A DNA stretch of 17,400 nt, from contig JBHLLT010000043.1 of the NCBI GenBank assembly GCA_048938855.1, positions 1 through 17,400 on the forward strand. The letters are read 5' to 3'. Below the pieces are notes generated by a model, which worked only from the letters and a program-made list of their open reading frames with translations, ran no database searches and was not told the DNA's origin. This DNA is from Promethearchaeota archaeon (GTDB lineage Archaea > Asgardarchaeota > Lokiarchaeia > Sigyniarchaeales > SOKP01). Made by a program: the position numbers and the translations under genes. Of the stretch, positions 2,605 through 16,460 are shown one piece after another. The stretch's first letter is position 1; every line of letters begins with the position of its first letter.

Positions 2605-2677
2605 ATCTGAAAACCTTTGCTATAGGTTAGTTTCCTCCCAACTAATATTTTTTTAAGAGGATCATTCTTTTTCAGAT
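2605..2677 (-). ncRNA. Structured 3'-UTR element of the Sec-HdrA; candidate (deviant) SECIS
   Basis: Outer stem AUCUGAAAA/UUUUCAGAU (2677-2669/2613-2605). AUGA (2665-2662) is followed by a 9-bp helix UCCUCUUAA/UUGGGAGGA with an A-rich loop. The 3' side has AA rather than the canonical GA. Confidence 0.4.
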
Positions 2678-4713
2678 TAAGTTTGATAAGGAGTTAAGGC
2701 TTCAATTTTTTTCCAAATAAGTTCAATGGATTCTATATATTCTTCCTTATATTCAAGTTCTGGACTGCAAATTCCTTTTATCTCTTCGACAAGTTGTTTA
2801 TCTCTATAATATTTGAGATCAATTGCTCGAGCTGGACATGAGGTTACGCAAACTCCGCATCCTTTGCATTTAATATCATCTACTTCAGCTAAATTTGCTC
2901 CATTAACTTTTATTGCTTGAAAGTTGCATAATTTTTCACATCTATGGCAACCCATACATAGATTCTCATTAATTTCAGCGATTAATAACTCTTGATTTAT
3001 TGTTTCTTTCGAGAGCAAAGTCGATGCTTTACTTGCGGCTGCTAATGCAGTTGATACTGAATAGGGAATATTTTTAGGACCAGCTGCACAGCCGCATATA
3101 TAAATTCCCAGGTTATTCGTCTCTTGAGGTTTTAGGCATCCGTGAATTTCAGTTAAAAAACCATTTATGTCCGTAGCAACACCTAAAATTTCTGCAATTT
3201 TTGCAGTACTTTTAGAGGGGACCATACCTGTAGATAATACAACTAAATCTGCATTCATGGTAATAAAGTCATTTGTTAAAGTTGAAGAAGCAGTGATTTT
3301 TATCTTATTTAGTTTTTGATCCATTCGAATATCCCCCACTTTTCCTCGTATCATTACAATCCCTGCTTCTCTCGCTTTTCTATAATATTCTTCATTTCTT
3401 TTATCCCATGTTCGCATATCTATATAAAAGATAACAATTTCCATATTTGGATATTCTTGTTTTAGCAATTGAGCATTTTTAAGTGCAACAGTGCAACATA
3501 CTCCTGAACAATATTGATTCCCTTTTAAAGATCTCGAACCTACACACTGGATCATTGCTACCGTTTTTGGGATTTGGCCATCAGAAATTCGATATACATG
3601 ACCTCCTGTCGGTCCGACGGGACTTAATAGGCGTTCTAACTCTATTTGAGTAATGACATCAGGATATATCCCATATTGATATTCGTTAGTTTTTATAATT
3701 GGATATTCATCCCAACCTGTAGCAATAATTATAACACCAACCTTTAAATTAATATATTCTGAATTTTGTTCTAAATCAATCGCCTCAGCAGGGCAAATTT
3801 TTTGACAATTTTTACATCCTATACATGCACTTTTGTCAATTAAAGCAATTTTGGGTACTGCTTGAGGAAATGGTGTGTAGATTGCCTTATGTTCACCAAT
3901 TCCTCTATTAAAACCATTAGGTATACTTATTGGACATTTTGTAGTGCATAATCCGCATCCTGTACACTTTTTTTCATTAACATAACGAGGTTTCTTACAA
4001 ATCTCAACATTATAATTTCCACATATACCACTGAATTTAGTAATTTCACTATAAGTAAACAATTTTATATTAGGGTGTTGTGAAGTACTAACCATAATAG
4101 GTGCTAAAACTCATATCGCACAATCATCAGTAGGATAAATTCGATCTAATTGTGCCATTTTTCCACCAATAGTTGGTTCTTTTTCAACTAAGTACACATT
4201 TATTCCTTGATTTGCCAAATCTAATGCTGCATTCATCCCTGCAATCCCGGCACCTACAATTAATACTGATTTTTCAACTGAAACATTTTTGTAAGGTATT
4301 ATTTCTAATTCTCTTGCACGATTGATTCCAGCTTGTATTAAACGAATTGCTTTTTTAGTAGTATTACTCTTATTTCCTGAATGAATAAATGAGCAATGTT
4401 CACGAAGATTAACCATTTGAAAGTAATTTGGATTCAATCCTGCTTGAGCTAAAACGGTTCGATATGTGGATTCATGAATTTTTGGAGTACATGCAGCAAC
4501 AACAACACGATTTAAATCTAAATCTAAAATATCGTTTTTGATAATATTTTGTCCTGGATCACTACAAGTAAAATCATTTACTTTAGCAACAATCACATTT
4601 GGAATAGCTTCAACATAATCTCTAATAAGATCACAATCGATAGAAGCACTAATATTAACTCCTCATCTACAAATATATACTCCGATTCTGACTTTGGTCT
4701 GTATCTCAGACAT
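2677..4713 (-). CDS. hdrA: Heterodisulfide reductase subunit A, selenoprotein with two predicted Sec (U17, U201), 678 aa
   Basis: ATG at 4713 with AGGTGA SD. MSEIQTKVRIGVYICR*GVNI has TGA at 4665-4663 and DRIYPTDDCAI*VLAPIMV has TGA at 4113-4111. All pieces are in one frame and both TGAs align with conserved HdrA Cys (GVYxCxCG, DCxxC). GAGIAG FAD motif, QCVGSR...CSGVCC, GPK and two ferredoxin domains are intact. Confidence 0.9.
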
Positions 4714-4774: not shown

Positions 4775-5147
4775 TGTAAAATTTCTAAAAAATTAAAAAA
4801 GATTAAAATGCATTTTTATATCCTATTCCGTGTAGATGATGGTTTAAATTAAATTTAAAAAATATGATAAGAAAAATTTTAATCATTTTGACAAAATTTT
4901 TAGTCATTTTTTCTTATGATGTACGAAACTGATCTTTACATATCCTATATCTAACATAAGATCATAGTTTTCACTACAAATATTAGTATATTCTTGACAT
5001 CTCACTGCAATAAATGAATATAAAGAAACAGAAAAAGGATCATATTTATATAGCCTGACAACAATATTTATCATAGAGATCATTTTATTAATCAAAATAA
5101 TCATAATAATTTTTGAGATTAATCAAATAAATTGGTGATTTTTAATA

Positions 5148-6299
5148 ATGAGAATAAAAATTTTTCAAGATTTAATTAAAGAAGTACATGAATTTGGTAT
5201 TTGTCAACAATGCGGAGGCTGTGTAAGTTTTTGTAATTCGATTGAAAATGAAGTAATTGGCTTTAAGGAACCTAATTCACCCCCAGAATATATAAACAAA
5301 GACAAATGCCTTGAGTGTGGTATATGTTATTTGATTTGTCCACAAACGCATCTTTTAGATGATGATCTTAATAATACTTTTAACTTTTCAGATTTTTCAT
5401 CAATGCCTATAGGTTTTGTTGATAATATTTATTCATGTAAATCCACAGACGAAGAATTTTTGAAATTTGGGACAGATGGAGGCGTTGTTAATACAATTAT
5501 AAATTATTTAATAGAAAAGAAAATTATTGATGGAGCTATTGTAGCAAAAACAAAATCTACATTTTCGAGAGAAGCTAGCATTGCAAAGACTAAAAAAGAT
5601 TTGATAGATGCTTCAGGTACAAAACTAGATATGTCTTCACAATTAGATACCGTACAAAAATTTCATACATACGTAAGTTCACTACCTAAATTAAAATATT
5701 TTAAATCCAAAAAGTTAGCACTTGTAGGAACGCCATGCCAGATTTATACAATTCGATGTATGCAAGCTTTAGGAATAATACCATCAGATAATATAGAAAT
5801 TTGTCTTGGTCTATTTTGTTATGAGAATTTCTACTTTGATAGAACAAAATTGAAGCAATTTGAAAAACAATTTAAGGTTAAAGTAAAAGATATTAAGAGA
5901 ATAAACATTAAGGAAAATCTAATTATTGAATTGAAGGATCATGACGCATCAAAAAAACCAATTAATATCCCTTTTGAAGATTTAACTGATTACATGCGAC
6001 CTGCTTGCGGTGTTTGTAAGGATTTTACAAATATTTATGCTGATATCTCATTTGGAGGATTAGGCTCCTCAGATAAACATACCACTGTAATTACCCGAAC
6101 TAAAAAAGGAAAAGAGATAATCCGTAATGCAATTAGAACAGGGTTAATCAAGTCCTTGAGTATGGATAATAACACTAAAAATATTATGAAAGAAAAATTG
6201 ATCCATTTTTCTCAATCAAAAATAGCAAGAACAGAGCAAAATTTAATAAATAAATTCAAATCTGGGAAAATTCATTCATTGAAATCTACGAATAGTTAA
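5148..6299 (+). CDS. Second F420 hydrogenase/dehydrogenase beta-subunit family protein (FrhB/FdhB-like) with N-terminal ferredoxin domain
   Basis: CQQCGGC, CLECGICYLICP, TDGGVV, ASGTK, GTPCQ, LGLFCYENF, CGVCKDF...ADISFG; GGTGA SD; clear paralog of 1419..2534. Confidence 0.88.
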   Translation: MRIKIFQDLIKEVHEFGICQQCGGCVSFCNSIENEVIGFKEPNSPPEYINKDKCLECGICYLICPQTHLLDDDLNNTFNFSDFSSMPIGFVDNIYSCKSTDEEFLKFGTDGGVVNTIINYLIEKKIIDGAIVAKTKSTFSREASIAKTKKDLIDASGTKLDMSSQLDTVQKFHTYVSSLPKLKYFKSKKLALVGTPCQIYTIRCMQALGIIPSDNIEICLGLFCYENFYFDRTKLKQFEKQFKVKVKDIKRINIKENLIIELKDHDASKKPINIPFEDLTDYMRPACGVCKDFTNIYADISFGGLGSSDKHTTVITRTKKGKEIIRNAIRTGLIKSLSMDNNTKNIMKEKLIHFSQSKIARTEQNLINKFKSGKIHSLKSTNS

Positions 6300-6392
6300 A
6301 AATTATTGTTAAAATCCAATTTTAATTTTTTTTTTAAAAATTAATAGAGTTATAAATTATTTGAAATTGAAAGGAAAAAGAGGAATTGAATT

Positions 6393-8942
6393 ATGGATAT
6401 CTATTCCATATTATCTCATCCATTTCGAAGAAAAATCTTGCTTCTTTTGGAAAAAGAAGGATACATCCCCTATACTGATTTAATGGAAAAATTGGGTTTA
6501 GAAACAACAGGACAATTAAATTTCCATCTTAAAAGACTTGGTTCCCTTATAAATAAAGATAAAAAATCGTATTTTCTCACAGAAGACGGAAAACGTGTAT
6601 TACAAATACTAAATCTTAATAAAAGAATTTTATCAGGAGATAATATTGATGAATATTTAGATTCAAAAGGAAGTGAAATAAACAGAATTGGAGTAATTAT
6701 TTGTAATTGTAATACAGAAATTTCAAACTCGATTAATATAACAGCACTTGAAAATTATGTGAATAAACTGAGAAAGGTAGTTTCTGTAAAGATATTTAAA
6801 AATTTATGTCAACAAAAAAATTTTGACAAAATTACGCATTGGGTAAAAGACAATTTCTTAAATAAGATTGTAATTGCTGCATGTTCTCCAAGAACTCATC
6901 AAAGTCTTTTTGAACGGATTTTTGATGGAGTTATTGACCACGTCAATATAGAAATTGCAAATATTAGAGAACAGTGTTGTTGGGTTCATCAATTTGAAAC
7001 AAATCAAATAGATCCATCACTTTCATTAGAAAAAGTAAAATTATTAATAGAAGCTGCAATTGAACGTGTCAGTCTCCAAAAAAAAGTAAAAGTCAAGAGA
7101 GTTGAGATTGAGAAGAGTGCTGCGATTTTAGGAGGTGGAATCGCGGGTATAACTCTTGCCTTAAATTTAGCTCGTGCTGGAATAAAAGTTTATGTGATCG
7201 AAAAATCACCTACTTTGGGAGGTAAGGTTGCTAGGTGGGATCGAATTCATAATATGGGTGATTGCTCAATATGTTTCATTTCAGAATTAATAGGGGAGTT
7301 AGTAAATGAAAAAAATATAAAGGTGTTTACTAATACTGAAATTGAAAATGTTTCAGGAGAAGTAGGGAATTTTACACTTAATTTGATTAAAAAACCTCGA
7401 TATGTAGATATTAAGAAATGTACTGGTTGTAAACAATGTATAGAAGTATGTAGTATTGAAAAACTAAACCAATATGAATTTGGCTTAGTCAATAGAAAAA
7501 TAATCTATATCCCATTTATTCATTCTTTCCCATATGTTCCTTTAATTGATGAATCAGATATTAATAATTGTCTTAATTGTAGGATATGTGAACGTGCTTG
7601 TGCAAATAAAGCAATTGATTTATTAGAAAAGCCAGAAAAAATTGAAATTAAAGTAGGAACTAAAATTATAGCTATTGGTTCTGATCTTTATTCAGATTTA
7701 GGAGAATATTCGTATAACCCACATAATGATATAATTACTTCATCAGAATTTGAGCGAATGGTATCCTCTGATGGATTTACTGAGGGAAAAATAATAAAAA
7801 TTTCTGATAAGAAACCTCCAGACACAATTTCAATTATTCAATGTGTAGGGCCTCCTGGTTGTCAACATAAACTTCAAGATATTCTAGCATTAAAATATTT
7901 AAATTATATTGAAGTAAAAATTCCAAACTGTAAAGTTAACGTTTTTTATGATTTAAGTAAAATAAATAAAAATGATAACTTTTTACTAAGATCCACGGAT
8001 TCTAGAATACATTATTATAATAAAGTGAAAATTCTTGAAAAACACAATCAAAAGATTGTTAAAGCCGACTTAAAAGAATATCCTAGCGATTTAATTATCT
8101 TAAATCAAACACTAGTTCCAAATGAAGATTTAAAGGCATTTCGAAAAACAATGGATTTTACATTAGACGATTATGGATTTATGAGTGAGGAAACATTAGC
8201 CTCAGGAATTTATGGGGCTGGAACTATATTTGGTCCATTAGATTATAATTCCACGATATCAACTGCTAATAACACTGCGGTTAAAATTATATCACTTCTC
8301 TCTAAAGATTTTCTAATAGCAGAATTTAGTGGAATTGAAATTGATGATAATAAATGTGGTTTATGTGGATTGTGTTCTGAAATTTGTCCTTATAATGCAA
8401 TTACAATAGAATCGGATAAAATAAGTATAGATAAATTTAAATGTAAAGGCTGTGGTACATGTGTTAGTGTTTGTCCTACTACAGCGATTGATTTAAATAT
8501 TGATACTTCTGAAAAGATTTTAAAGACAATTGAAGTTTTTTCGAAATTCAGGAAACGACCAAAAATTATTGCATTTTGTTGTCGATCTTGTGGTTATGCC
8601 GCTGCTGATGATGCTGGTCTTAAAAAAATCTCCTATAATCCAAATATTTTTATTTTACGAGTTCCTTGTACTGGTCGCATTGATACTAATTTTATTATTA
8701 AATCCTTTGAATTTGGTTTTGACGGAGTAATGGTAATCGGTTGCCGTAAAAATGCTTGTCGATATATTGATGGAGTAGAAAAAGTAGAAAAAAAACTTTT
8801 GTTATTAAAAAATATTATCCCAAAGAAATATAGTGAGCGGATAATCCTTAAACATATGAATGCAGTTGAGGGCAATAAGTTTGCTGAAATAGTTAATAAA
8901 TTTTATGGTAAATTATTGGAGGAGGTTGAATTTGAAGCGTAA
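6393..8942 (+). CDS. Fusion protein: ArsR-like winged HTH + degenerate HdrA-like flavoprotein + MvhD domain
   Basis: N-terminal ~80 aa LSHPFRRKILLLL...YTDLMEKLGLETTGQLNFHLKRL...YFLTEDG (wHTH). HdrA motifs GVIICNC, AACSPRTH, NIREQCCW, GGGIAG, DCSIC and two ferredoxin domains. C-terminal MvhD motifs FCCRSCGYAAAD, RVPCTGR, GCRKNACRY, NAVEG. Confidence 0.88.
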   Translation: MDIYSILSHPFRRKILLLLEKEGYIPYTDLMEKLGLETTGQLNFHLKRLGSLINKDKKSYFLTEDGKRVLQILNLNKRILSGDNIDEYLDSKGSEINRIGVIICNCNTEISNSINITALENYVNKLRKVVSVKIFKNLCQQKNFDKITHWVKDNFLNKIVIAACSPRTHQSLFERIFDGVIDHVNIEIANIREQCCWVHQFETNQIDPSLSLEKVKLLIEAAIERVSLQKKVKVKRVEIEKSAAILGGGIAGITLALNLARAGIKVYVIEKSPTLGGKVARWDRIHNMGDCSICFISELIGELVNEKNIKVFTNTEIENVSGEVGNFTLNLIKKPRYVDIKKCTGCKQCIEVCSIEKLNQYEFGLVNRKIIYIPFIHSFPYVPLIDESDINNCLNCRICERACANKAIDLLEKPEKIEIKVGTKIIAIGSDLYSDLGEYSYNPHNDIITSSEFERMVSSDGFTEGKIIKISDKKPPDTISIIQCVGPPGCQHKLQDILALKYLNYIEVKIPNCKVNVFYDLSKINKNDNFLLRSTDSRIHYYNKVKILEKHNQKIVKADLKEYPSDLIILNQTLVPNEDLKAFRKTMDFTLDDYGFMSEETLASGIYGAGTIFGPLDYNSTISTANNTAVKIISLLSKDFLIAEFSGIEIDDNKCGLCGLCSEICPYNAITIESDKISIDKFKCKGCGTCVSVCPTTAIDLNIDTSEKILKTIEVFSKFRKRPKIIAFCCRSCGYAAADDAGLKKISYNPNIFILRVPCTGRIDTNFIIKSFEFGFDGVMVIGCRKNACRYIDGVEKVEKKLLLLKNIIPKKYSERIILKHMNAVEGNKFAEIVNKFYGKLLEEVEFEA

Positions 8943-9690
8943 AGTGGCTATAATATCTTTAACTTCTTGTAGTGGTTGTATCTCTTCACTTATCTCATTA
9001 GATATTTTTCCACAATTCCTTGAGAGAACAAAAATAGACTATTTTCAATTTATAAGCGATATGAAAGATATTGAAGATTGTGATATTTGTTTAGTAGAAG
9101 GTTGTATTTCTGAAGAAAATCAAATAGCTATGCTTAGGAAAATTCGAACTCAAGTAAAGAAGGTATATGCATTAGGAACTTGTGCTTGTTTCGGAGGGAT
9201 TTTAAGTTTATCCGATGCAAAAACAACTCAACAAATTTCAAGTTTTATTGAAATTGATGGTATGATTCCTGGTTGTCCACCGCCTATAAAACTTTTTGGA
9301 AATTGTTTAATTCGGTTAGTTGAAAATAAAGAATTAGAATTATCTGAAAAAAATATGTGTGGTACGTGTCCATTAAAGGGAAATATGAAAATAAATTCAA
9401 ATATAAAAATCTCAAAACTTACTCCAAACCCAGATGAAATAAAAATTGAAGAAGAAAATACAGAATGTTTTTTAGAAAATGGAATTTTATGTCTCGGAGC
9501 TATAACAAGAGATGGATGTGAACATAAATGTATTAAGATGGGGCTTCCTTGTGAAGGATGTATGGGCCCTGTATCAAAAGATTATACTTCTAATGTCATT
9601 AACTATTTGAGTTTGATTAATTTATCTAAAGAAATCAAAGATTACGCTGGAATATTTTATCGATTTTCAAAACCAAAATTGGAGGGATGA
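8932..9690 (+). CDS. Group 3 [NiFe]-hydrogenase small subunit (MvhG/HydD-like)
   Basis: SCSGC, EG, GTCACFGG and PGCPP motifs; C-terminal CGTCP...CFL...CLG...RDGC...C...PCEGCMGP. Likely TTG start at 8932 (GGAGGT SD at 8921-8926), overlapping the upstream stop. Confidence 0.88.
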   Translation: MKRKVAIISLTSCSGCISSLISLDIFPQFLERTKIDYFQFISDMKDIEDCDICLVEGCISEENQIAMLRKIRTQVKKVYALGTCACFGGILSLSDAKTTQQISSFIEIDGMIPGCPPPIKLFGNCLIRLVENKELELSEKNMCGTCPLKGNMKINSNIKISKLTPNPDEIKIEEENTECFLENGILCLGAITRDGCEHKCIKMGLPCEGCMGPVSKDYTSNVINYLSLINLSKEIKDYAGIFYRFSKPKLEG

Positions 9691-9693
9691 AGG

Positions 9694-10998
9694 ATGTTAA
9701 AAGTCATTGATGTTTGTAAACGAATTGAAGGTCATGGTGACATAAAAATATTACTTCAAAACGATGAAATATCATTAGTAAATTTTGAATTTGAGGTTTA
9801 TAGAGGTTTTGAAAACTTTTTAGTAGGAAAAGCTTTATTTGATATTCCAAAAATAGTCTCTCGTATATGTGGATTATGTTATACGTCTCAAGCAATCACT
9901 AGTTGTAAGGCAATTGAAGATATATATGAGATCAGGGTATCAACGCAAACAAAACTCTTGAGATGTATTTTAATGAATGCGGAAATGATCAAATCCCATT
10001 CTATGAGTTTCTTTTTCCAAACCCTCCCAGACTTATTAAATATATTTAATATTACTCATAAAACCACCAACCCTTATGATTTAATTAATTATGATCCTAA
10101 ACTAACCACAAATATTTATGAATTAATTAAAATTGGCAATGAAATAAATAATTTATTTGGGAGCAGATCCGTTCATCTAATTTCCGTTATTCCTGGAGCA
10201 GTTATTTATTCCCCTTCCAAAAAGAACATTTCAATAGCTAAGAAAAAATTTCAAAGTGCTTTATTCAATTTAGAATGGATTATCGAAAAATTTATTGAAT
10301 TATTTTCTCATCAAACTCCTCCAAGCGAATTTTCTACTCCAAATCTTATTTATCTCGGTCTCACTAAATTTGGAAATTACAGTCGATATTCTGGGAAGTT
10401 ATCAATCAAAGAAAATAATAAAAATATGATAGAATTTGAAAAACATAATTATTCTTCATATTTTGAAAAAGAACCAGATTTACGAGGAATTGACTTTCAT
10501 TTTGATAATAAAAGTAATGTGATTGTTGGCCCTATTAGTCGCTACAAGATTAATGAAAATTATGGTATCGACGAAATTCAAACTTATCTTGATTATTTCG
10601 ATAAATCATGGAAAAATAATATACTTTTTGCGAATTTTATTAGGTTATTAGAAATGTATATGGAAAGTTTCCAAAGCATACAATCTCTAGACCATCCTGA
10701 TTTAACCATTAAACAAAATGCTCCATCTCTTAATACAGTAAAAAATGTTGAGGGAATTGGCGTTATTGAAGCACCTAGAGGTACACTTGTACATCATTAT
10801 CACCTAAATAATCATAATTCTATTGATCGTATAAAATTGTTTGTTGCTACCGAGTTCAATATTCCATTGATAAATACCATGATTACAAATTCTGCTAAAG
10901 GATTATTTGAAAAGACTGGAGATATTAATTTAGTTAAGAATAATGTCCAGAAAATAATTAGAGCTTTTGATCCCTGTATCTCTTGTGCAACACATTAA
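9694..10998 (+). CDS. Group 3 [NiFe]-hydrogenase large subunit (MvhA/HydA-like) lacking a C-terminal extension
   Basis: RIEGHG, RGFENFLVGK, RICGLC (L1), EAPRGTLVHHY, RAFDPCISCATH* (L2). Confidence 0.92.
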   Translation: MLKVIDVCKRIEGHGDIKILLQNDEISLVNFEFEVYRGFENFLVGKALFDIPKIVSRICGLCYTSQAITSCKAIEDIYEIRVSTQTKLLRCILMNAEMIKSHSMSFFFQTLPDLLNIFNITHKTTNPYDLINYDPKLTTNIYELIKIGNEINNLFGSRSVHLISVIPGAVIYSPSKKNISIAKKKFQSALFNLEWIIEKFIELFSHQTPPSEFSTPNLIYLGLTKFGNYSRYSGKLSIKENNKNMIEFEKHNYSSYFEKEPDLRGIDFHFDNKSNVIVGPISRYKINENYGIDEIQTYLDYFDKSWKNNILFANFIRLLEMYMESFQSIQSLDHPDLTIKQNAPSLNTVKNVEGIGVIEAPRGTLVHHYHLNNHNSIDRIKLFVATEFNIPLINTMITNSAKGLFEKTGDINLVKNNVQKIIRAFDPCISCATH

Positions 10999-11366: not shown

Positions 11367-11380
11367 TGAATAAATATTCA
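11367..11380. promoter_or_regulatory. Palindromic operator TGAATA-N2-TATTCA (copy 1)
   Basis: TGAATAAATATTCA upstream of the NifX-family gene at 11448; same motif at 13420 and 16444. Confidence 0.6.
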
Positions 11381-13416: not shown

Positions 13417-13436
13417 TTATGAATATTTATTCATAA
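13417..13436. promoter_or_regulatory. Palindromic operator TGAATA-N2-TATTCA (copy 2, extended)
   Basis: TTATGAATA-TT-TATTCATAA in the divergent NifX/DUF134 intergenic region. Confidence 0.65.
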
Positions 13437-13578: not shown

Positions 13579-14001
13579 TTGATAGGTAGAAGAAGACATC
13601 GTCGTTGGGTTAATCAACCACCTAATAACTTATATTTTACTCAAGAACCTCCAAAACCAGAAGATGCAATAATATTAACTATTGCTGAATTTGAAGCAAT
13701 GCGATTAAAGCACTTTCTAGGCTTAAACCAGAAAGAAGCGGCTGAAAGAATGGGTGTCAGCCAGCCAACATTTTCTAGGATTCTTGAGAATGCTCATCAA
13801 AAAAATACTATAGCATTGCTTGAAGGAAAAGAAATTAAAGTCTATGGTGGGAATTTTGAACATAAACCTAGCTTTAAAGGATATGGATGTCTTAATTGTA
13901 ATTATGAGTGGGAGGATCCAGAAGCTAAGAAGGATCAAAAAGTAAGTTGTGTAAAATGTAATTCAAAGAATGTTTATTATATTATTAGAGAACTAATTTA
14001 A
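13579..14001 (+). CDS. DUF134 family predicted DNA-binding protein with C-terminal Zn ribbon
   Basis: GRRRHRR...EFEAMRLKHFLGLNQKEAAERMGVSQPTFSRILENAHQK...ALLEGKEI; CLNC...CVKC; GGTGA SD before TTG. Confidence 0.88.
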   Translation: MIGRRRHRRWVNQPPNNLYFTQEPPKPEDAIILTIAEFEAMRLKHFLGLNQKEAAERMGVSQPTFSRILENAHQKNTIALLEGKEIKVYGGNFEHKPSFKGYGCLNCNYEWEDPEAKKDQKVSCVKCNSKNVYYIIRELI

Positions 14002-16440: not shown

Positions 16441-16460
16441 TTATGAATAATTATTCATTA
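16441..16460. promoter_or_regulatory. Palindromic operator TGAATA-N2-TATTCA (copy 3)
   Basis: TTATGAATA-AT-TATTCATTA (perfect palindrome 16443-16458) between the divergent NifX and Mrp genes. Confidence 0.65.

Follow-up and report, generated by a model that had tools for sequence, protein, structure and literature searches.

A winged-helix domain fused to HdrA in Asgard archaea: a candidate repressor of its own hydrogenase gene cluster

We describe an 849-residue protein of a Promethearchaeota archaeon in which a winged-helix (wHTH) domain, HdrA and MvhD are encoded by a single open reading frame (6393-8942, forward strand, zero internal stops). The frame lies in a window of 17,400 nucleotides, the whole stretch of DNA analysed here (contig JBHLLT010000043.1 of assembly GCA_048938855.1), which is AT-rich and has its closest homologues in genomes labelled Lokiarchaeia/Promethearchaeota. 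We propose, with a probability of roughly 0.55, that the fusion is part of a regulatory hydrogenase-flavoprotein complex that represses its own gene cluster and is gated by H2 or redox state. We found no description of a wHTH-HdrA-MvhD fusion in a literature search that most subscription journals lay outside. The features are collected in Table 1.

Table 1. Predicted features of the fusion locus, with positions in the window
Feature	Positions	Strand	Basis
Divergent canonical HdrA (Sec-hdrA), intact HA4 motif, two in-frame TGA	2677-4713	-	profile match, alignment
Operator 2 (1 mismatch), closer to divergent Sec-hdrA	4889-4906	.	motif match
TATA box TTTATATA	5045-5052	+	conserved position; function inferred from archaeal consensus
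Operator 1, TGAYAA-N6-TTRTCA, 3 bp downstream of TATA box	5056-5073	.	conserved across related promoters
FrhB-like F420-binding gene, optional first operon gene	5148-6299	+	profile match, locus comparison
wHTH domain, residues 1-80 (DUF7347, ArsR/HxlR-like fold)	6393-6632	+	Pfam, predicted fold, dN/dS 0.048
Predicted recognition helix T39-L49	6507-6539	+	role inferred from wHTH topology
Linker, flexible yet conserved, residues ~81-96	6633-6680	+	pLDDT <50 at 82-94; dN/dS 0.07
HdrA body: N-terminal Fe-S domain, FAD site GGGIAG, C291/C294, two ferredoxins	6681-8537	+	homology, alignment
Eroded HA4 cluster motif	7833-7907	+	alignment to 5ODC; dN/dS 0.31
Fused MvhD [2Fe-2S] domain, Cys ligands invariant	8550-8942	+	profile match, alignment
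MvhG-like small subunit, Cys ligands conserved	8932-9690	+	profile match, alignment
Divergent group-3 [NiFe] large subunit	9694-10998	+	profile match, alignment

Results

A conserved winged-helix domain is joined in frame to HdrA

A preliminary description of this DNA had proposed that an ArsR-like wHTH runs without a stop into the N-terminus of an HdrA. We confirmed the in-frame fusion and found its motifs in the single frame: HPFRRKIL at residues 9-16, GQLNFHLKRL at 40-49, YFLTEDG at 60-66 and the HdrA start motif RIGVIICNC at 98-106 (nucleotide 6684). Profile and homology searches assigned residues 95-715 to HdrA and residues 720-845 to MvhD; the C-terminal MvhD and the loss of the HA4 cluster motif from the HdrA part had both been overlooked. 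Residues 2-72 matched Pfam DUF7347 above its cut-off (46 bits, E 5e-12) and also HTH_24, and the domain predicted alone adopted a winged-helix fold (pLDDT 92). The model resembled YodB, CadC and PH1061-type regulators (TM about 0.8; Z 11-12), and the fold match extended to ArsR/HxlR/MarR-type repressors, including the N- and C-terminal helices. "ArsR-like" thus describes the fold but not the family: the ArsR/SmtB model NF033788 scored 24.5, below its cut-off of 55, and residues 1-96 contain no cysteine, so there is no metal or thiol sensing site of the ArsR/SmtB kind in that part.

The wHTH had the lowest dN/dS among all domains of the fusion protein (0.048), and T39, G40, N43 and H45 of its predicted recognition helix did not vary across a diverse alignment. 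The architecture is identical in more than 100 full-length homologues. Membrane proteins P0176, P0211 and P0256 each contain two DUF7347 winged helices with similar recognition helices. The complex prediction for a wHTH homodimer scored 0.19 against a mark of 0.42, and we counted it neither for nor against a dimer. The terminal helices of the wHTH could be its own means of dimerisation. The earlier suggestion that the HdrA dimer supplies the two-fold geometry for a palindrome is plausible, because electron transfer in trans needs a dimer.

The fusion could in principle be an assembly or read-through artefact that joins two genes, and one near-identical Hermodarchaeia contig does carry the HTH as a separate 84-residue gene. 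That split allele, however, is a deletion allele lacking 89 bp, the first HdrA Cys motif among them. Moreover, gap-free contigs from two other studies independently bridge the junction (6348-6877 and 6461-7562), and the fusion recurs in 59 genomes. An artefact is therefore extremely improbable, and we conclude that a real, conserved wHTH is part of this HdrA.

The fusion is inherited as a cassette with MvhG and MvhA

We searched 251 Asgard genomes with a profile of residues 1-235 and found the full fusion in 59 of them, which belong to six families; its scores were clearly separated from those of ordinary HdrA. The bearers are labelled Promethearchaeota, Helarchaeota, Jord/Freyarchaeia and Hermodarchaeota, and the fusion is also present in Bathyarchaeia. 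The fusion HdrA bodies formed one clade in the tree (100/100), on a long stem and apart from 23 canonical HdrAs. Orthologues do not generally encode the HTH separately: 60 of 61 orthologous wHTHs in the sample are on HdrA, and the remaining one is joined to an Mtd-like protein. This exception (locus L128, 4501-6477; 658 residues) has the wHTH directly attached, H45 changed to R and no operator, and is likely a deletion derivative of the cassette.

Wherever the contig is long enough, including in Jordarchaeia, Hermodarchaeia and Bathyarchaeia, MvhG and MvhA follow the fusion, with tight or overlapping gene spacing and variable flanks. In our window mvhG probably starts at a TTG behind AGGAGG that overlaps the fusion stop. 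Five relatives without the fusion likewise yielded no intact cognate MvhA; one carried a broken remnant. Several relatives lack frhB, and there the same promoter lies directly against the fusion. No kinase was found among the window ORFs adjoining the cassette. In Bathyarchaeia (L139, 4378-9629), GcvH and a HydABC/NuoEFG-like operon precede the cassette, with hypA and hypF nearby; that operon contains a hydrogenase small-subunit/ferredoxin fusion and has the same operator core upstream.

A palindrome at a fixed distance from the TATA box marks the cassette promoter

The preliminary description had suggested a palindromic target, and a conserved palindrome, TGAYAA-N6-TTRTCA, does lie upstream, where operator 1 is predicted to control the promoter of a frhB-fusion-mvhG-mvhA operon. 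Within 250 bp upstream, 25 of the 73 distinct loci had an exact TGAYA-N8-TRTCA; every other spacer from 4 to 13 gave 0-2 loci, and an in-gene control gave 0. A palindrome with at most one mismatch lay within 2.2 kb at 64 of the 73; because the genomes are related, these counts are not independent tests. The TATA-to-operator spacing was 3 bp in 38 of 52 lokiarchaeal promoters, and none had another spacing in the range 0-8. The palindrome stays at the promoter with or without frhB inserted before the fusion. In Bathyarchaeia, an identical palindrome with the core GACAA-N6-TTGTC occurs in both intergenic regions that flank the cassette and the HydABC-like operon upstream of it. A sigma-70 promoter scan stayed at chance level, its consensus not being applicable to archaea, and Rfam gave no match.

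The two sites in the window are not significant taken alone, since 37 of 200 shuffles were as good. When we scanned 3.95 Mb with a matrix trained on other genomes only, the top three intergenic sites were 5056-5073, 4889-4906 and one 158 bp before a 211-residue gene and an Mtd-like gene. The top-scoring in-gene match (C41:610) lies inside a coding frame, and motif counts outside the cluster equalled those of spacer-shifted controls, giving no sign of a wider regulon in the genome scan. The third site and its Mtd-like operon are on the adjoining contig C86, some 10 kb upstream; because C86 overlaps the first 77 bases of the window, this is a separate promoter in the same cluster. As judged from sequence, the regulon would be local, with about three promoters in one gene cluster.

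In many relatives the Mtd-like operon lies next to the fusion in divergent orientation, and it is largely co-inherited with the fusion. It encodes 211- and 561-residue proteins co-inherited with the cassette (L106, 455-2775; C86:8454-10774 in the genome studied here, G000); the 561-residue protein combines a paralogous domain of unknown function with an Mpt_N methylene-pterin dehydrogenase-like domain, and we found no family assignment for the 211-residue protein. Hermodarchaeia and another deep family have the Mtd-like gene directly after mvhA. The operator precedes the Mtd-like operon in nine fusion-bearing genomes, including the Promethearchaeota archaeon studied here, and lies between mvhA and mtd in one further lineage. 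None of 12 such loci from fusion-lacking genomes had it; among them were a same-genus genome whose cassette has decayed and the wHTH-Mtd derivative.

The divergent HdrA gene, closer to operator 2, is a probable regulated target. It has in-frame TGA codons at 4665-4663 (in C-R-U-G) and 4113-4111 (in C-A-I-U), and it probably encodes a double-selenocysteine protein that gene callers have split; selenocysteine-containing HdrA is already known in Asgard archaea (PMC11227280). In fusion-lacking genomes, the Sec-hdrA promoters available as controls were paralogues or on a broken contig only. Farther out, an HdrA fragment at 2-910 is the end of an HdrA of about 1037 residues in an hdrA-mvhD-frhB unit without hdrBC. 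A different palindrome, TGAATA-N2-TATTCA, occurs at 11367-11380, 13420-13433 and 16444-16457 (0.01 expected by chance), near three NifB/NifX-like genes; its cognate regulator is possibly the DUF134 HTH protein at 13579-14001.

The wHTH could also be a structural, dimerisation or non-specific DNA-tethering module, with the palindrome belonging to some other factor. DUF7347-type wHTHs are indeed fused to many unrelated proteins, and one fusion-bearing family (L071-L075) has an altered recognition helix and no recognisable operator. In members L072-L075 the helix reads TSGKLNFH, the operator is absent, and MvhA has K-x-CGFC in L1 and no terminal His after L2. Against such a module, the operator tracks the fusion, irrespective of the flanks, through the Asgard classes and Bathyarchaeia, and is gone where the fusion is missing or degraded, including in the H45R wHTH-Mtd derivative. 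Nor did another protein of the same genome have a similar recognition helix (next best E 1e-5). We judge a non-specific module improbable; instead, the wHTH very probably binds TGAYAA-N6-TTRTCA. Because binding at a site 3 bp behind the TATA box would be expected to block transcription initiation, the protein is likely a repressor.

The HdrA part keeps its flavin site and loses the HA4 cluster

In both homology and fold the central part is an HdrA, with an N-terminal domain, an FAD/TrxR domain and two ferredoxin domains (E 1e-113 to 8RVU; Foldseek TM by target 0.80-0.84). Its N-terminal Fe-S domain residues are C104, C106, C139, C164, H169 and C195, and the inserted and C-terminal 2x[4Fe-4S] ferredoxins are both present. 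The N-terminal cluster ligands, the FAD motif, C291/C294, both ferredoxin pairs and the MvhD cysteines are invariant or almost invariant in 118 near homologues. K501 and E454, invariant in all 118, align to K409 and E356 of 5ODC, the latter of which we take to be the flavin-contacting Glu. K409 of HdrA touches flavin N5 (PMC6405883). The Lys of a GPK motif was considered as the flavin lysine and rejected, as K409 maps to the retained K501.

Scores with curated HdrA models fell below the cut-offs (NF040770, 583 of 1100; NF041891, 431 of 1300). In 5ODC, C386, C399, C403 and C404 are presumably the ligands of the HA4 [4Fe-4S] cluster. The matching segment contains no cysteine in 78 of the 118 near homologues, one in 32 and two in 8, and the CC pair is absent from all 118. 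At 0.31, the dN/dS of the HA4 loop is the highest of all segments. Deep-branching fusions retain four HA4 cysteines, in a shorter loop. In methanogens, HA4 is the route of the high-potential electron to HdrB (PMC13580544, PMC12350162). No hdrB or hdrC (CCG) gene was found in the cassette; many CCG proteins are encoded elsewhere in the genome, which also has at least seven HdrA paralogues whose HA4 motif is complete.

The large subunit is a divergent, tail-less group-3 hydrogenase

The MvhA-like subunit keeps the four Ni-binding cysteines (L1/L2) and the EGH motif, and its best matches are group-3 rather than group-2 enzymes. Its VhuA model score was 150 bits, compared with 435 for the canonical MvhA of the same genome. 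In all 29 near homologues, Gln replaces the His after L1 and the L2 His (the end of DPCISCATH in our protein) is the last residue, leaving no cleavable tail; the canonical, housekeeping MvhA has a tail of 27 residues and a maturation protease encoded next to it. Deep-branching fusion loci keep the L1 His and a short MvhA tail of about 7-13 residues. Because these deep members keep the HA4 cysteines, the His and a tail, we conclude that the sensor-like traits (HA4 loss, Gln and lack of a tail) were derived within the lineage.

These traits bear on a further alternative, in which the complex is a trigger enzyme: a working hydrogenase or oxidoreductase whose HdrA subunit autoregulates by titration, with H2 not being the signal. 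A free or immature subunit would bind DNA, and assembly, Ni loading or a partner would release it; ferredoxin, FrhB/F420 or the Mtd-like C1 protein, for example, would be the electron outlet. In favor of such an enzyme, no catalytic or electron-transfer motif has been lost, K501/E454, both ferredoxin pairs and the Ni-binding cysteines included. HA4 and the L1 His persist in deep members, an Mtd-like gene is inherited together with the cassette (directly behind mvhA in two deep families), and the regulon is small and local. In this lineage, however, relaxed selection has let HA4 decay, whereas no domain is more constrained than the wHTH. Tail loss and the His-to-Gln change accompany the decay, and a canonical MvhA is encoded separately in the genome, along with at least seven full-HA4 HdrA paralogues. 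We therefore consider a trigger enzyme rather unlikely here, although it may well suit the deep-branching members.

Discussion

We favor a regulatory complex that would work as follows. The fusion would dimerise, carry MvhG and MvhA docked on its MvhD part, bind the palindrome and repress its own operon, the divergent gene or genes and the co-inherited Mtd-like C1 operon. H2 oxidised at MvhAG would reduce the flavin and, without the HA4/HdrBC exit, the module would stay reduced. The mobile arm that carries the HdrA N-terminal domain, and hence the wHTH, would then change state and alter DNA binding. Cofactor motifs are intact along the path from NiFe through the MvhG clusters, the MvhD [2Fe-2S] cluster and the Cys pair to FAD. 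In methanogens, MvhD reduces the partner subunit's FAD, possibly via the Cys pair, and HdrA's N- and C-terminal domains form a mobile arm with MvhAGD (PMC13580544, PMC12350162). Solved complexes place the HdrA N-terminal domain on this arm, off the rigid dimer core (PMC13580544); the wHTH would therefore be attached to a moving part. That H2 or redox state gates DNA binding is slightly more probable than not, given the intact wire from NiFe to flavin, the lost HdrBC exit and the wHTH's place on the mobile arm.

Several observations count against this regulatory reading. Tail-less large subunits include H2 sensors, but they also occur in the non-sensory groups 4c, 4e and 4g (PMC7294309). The sensor-like traits are lineage-specific: deep-branching members retain a short tail, the L1 His and four HA4 cysteines. 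Archaeal relatives of this wHTH module are promiscuous and are found on membrane proteins too, and in family L071-L075 the fusion is present but the operator is not recognisable. The regulon, moreover, would be no more than local.

The closest known system is MvhAGD-HdrABC (5ODC, 8RVU, 9SW2-6; PMC12350162, PMC13580544), with homologous HdrA, MvhD, MvhG and MvhA. The equivalents of Lys409/Glu356, the Cys202/205 pair, the FAD site and the ferredoxin domains are kept. What differs here is the N-terminal wHTH, the fused MvhD, a cassette without hdrB/hdrC, the loss of the HA4 ligands in this lineage, a tail-less MvhA of about 30% identity and a dedicated operator. With group 3c [NiFe] MvhA our large subunit shares the Ni cysteines and the MvhG/MvhD partners, but not the L1 His, the tail or close similarity. 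In HoxC, the large subunit of a regulatory hydrogenase, Q67 likewise stands for the His after L1. A tail-less large subunit is also common to our protein and group 2b (HoxBC/HupUV; PMC7294309), as is a role, here only proposed, in controlling genes by H2. Ancestry here, however, is group-3-like, the cassette has no histidine kinase (HoxJ/HupT) or response regulator, and the complex has its DNA-binding domain built in.

Fusions of enzymes with DNA-binding domains have precedents. PutA is a flavoenzyme-repressor with a fused DNA-binding domain. The archaeal wHTH-riboflavin kinase RbkR has its DNA-binding domain at the N-terminus of the enzyme and palindromic operators on its own and neighbouring genes (PMC5397151). 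Our protein shares with both the fusion and a conserved operator on its own genes, as seen from genomes alone, whereas its enzyme modules are unrelated and a multi-subunit NiFe/Fe-S/FAD wire is the putative input. With regulators of the ArsR/SmtB, HxlR/YodB and MarR types it shares the fold and a short inverted-repeat promoter operator, but any sensing would come from the fused module. We tentatively suggest, at a little under even odds, an archaeal one-component H2 sensor, in which a [NiFe] hydrogenase is wired straight to DNA via an electron-bifurcating HdrA arm put to new use, with no kinase or separate regulator, and which evolved stepwise from a functional Mvh-Hdr module. An H2 sensor would, just as tentatively, also imply convergence on features of bacterial sensory hydrogenases.

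The proposal breaks into testable pieces: a domain of 84 residues, an operator of 18 bp whose place behind the TATA box is fixed, and a regulon of three promoters. If it is true, the redox-driven movement of the HdrA arm would be usable as a signal. Metabolic reconstructions of Asgard genomes should not score this divergent hydrogenase/HdrA pair as a standard group 3c Mvh-Hdr. The cassette is a candidate for how archaea sense H2 and for how Asgard archaea tune H2 exchange with syntrophic partners, an exchange that bears on models of eukaryote origin.
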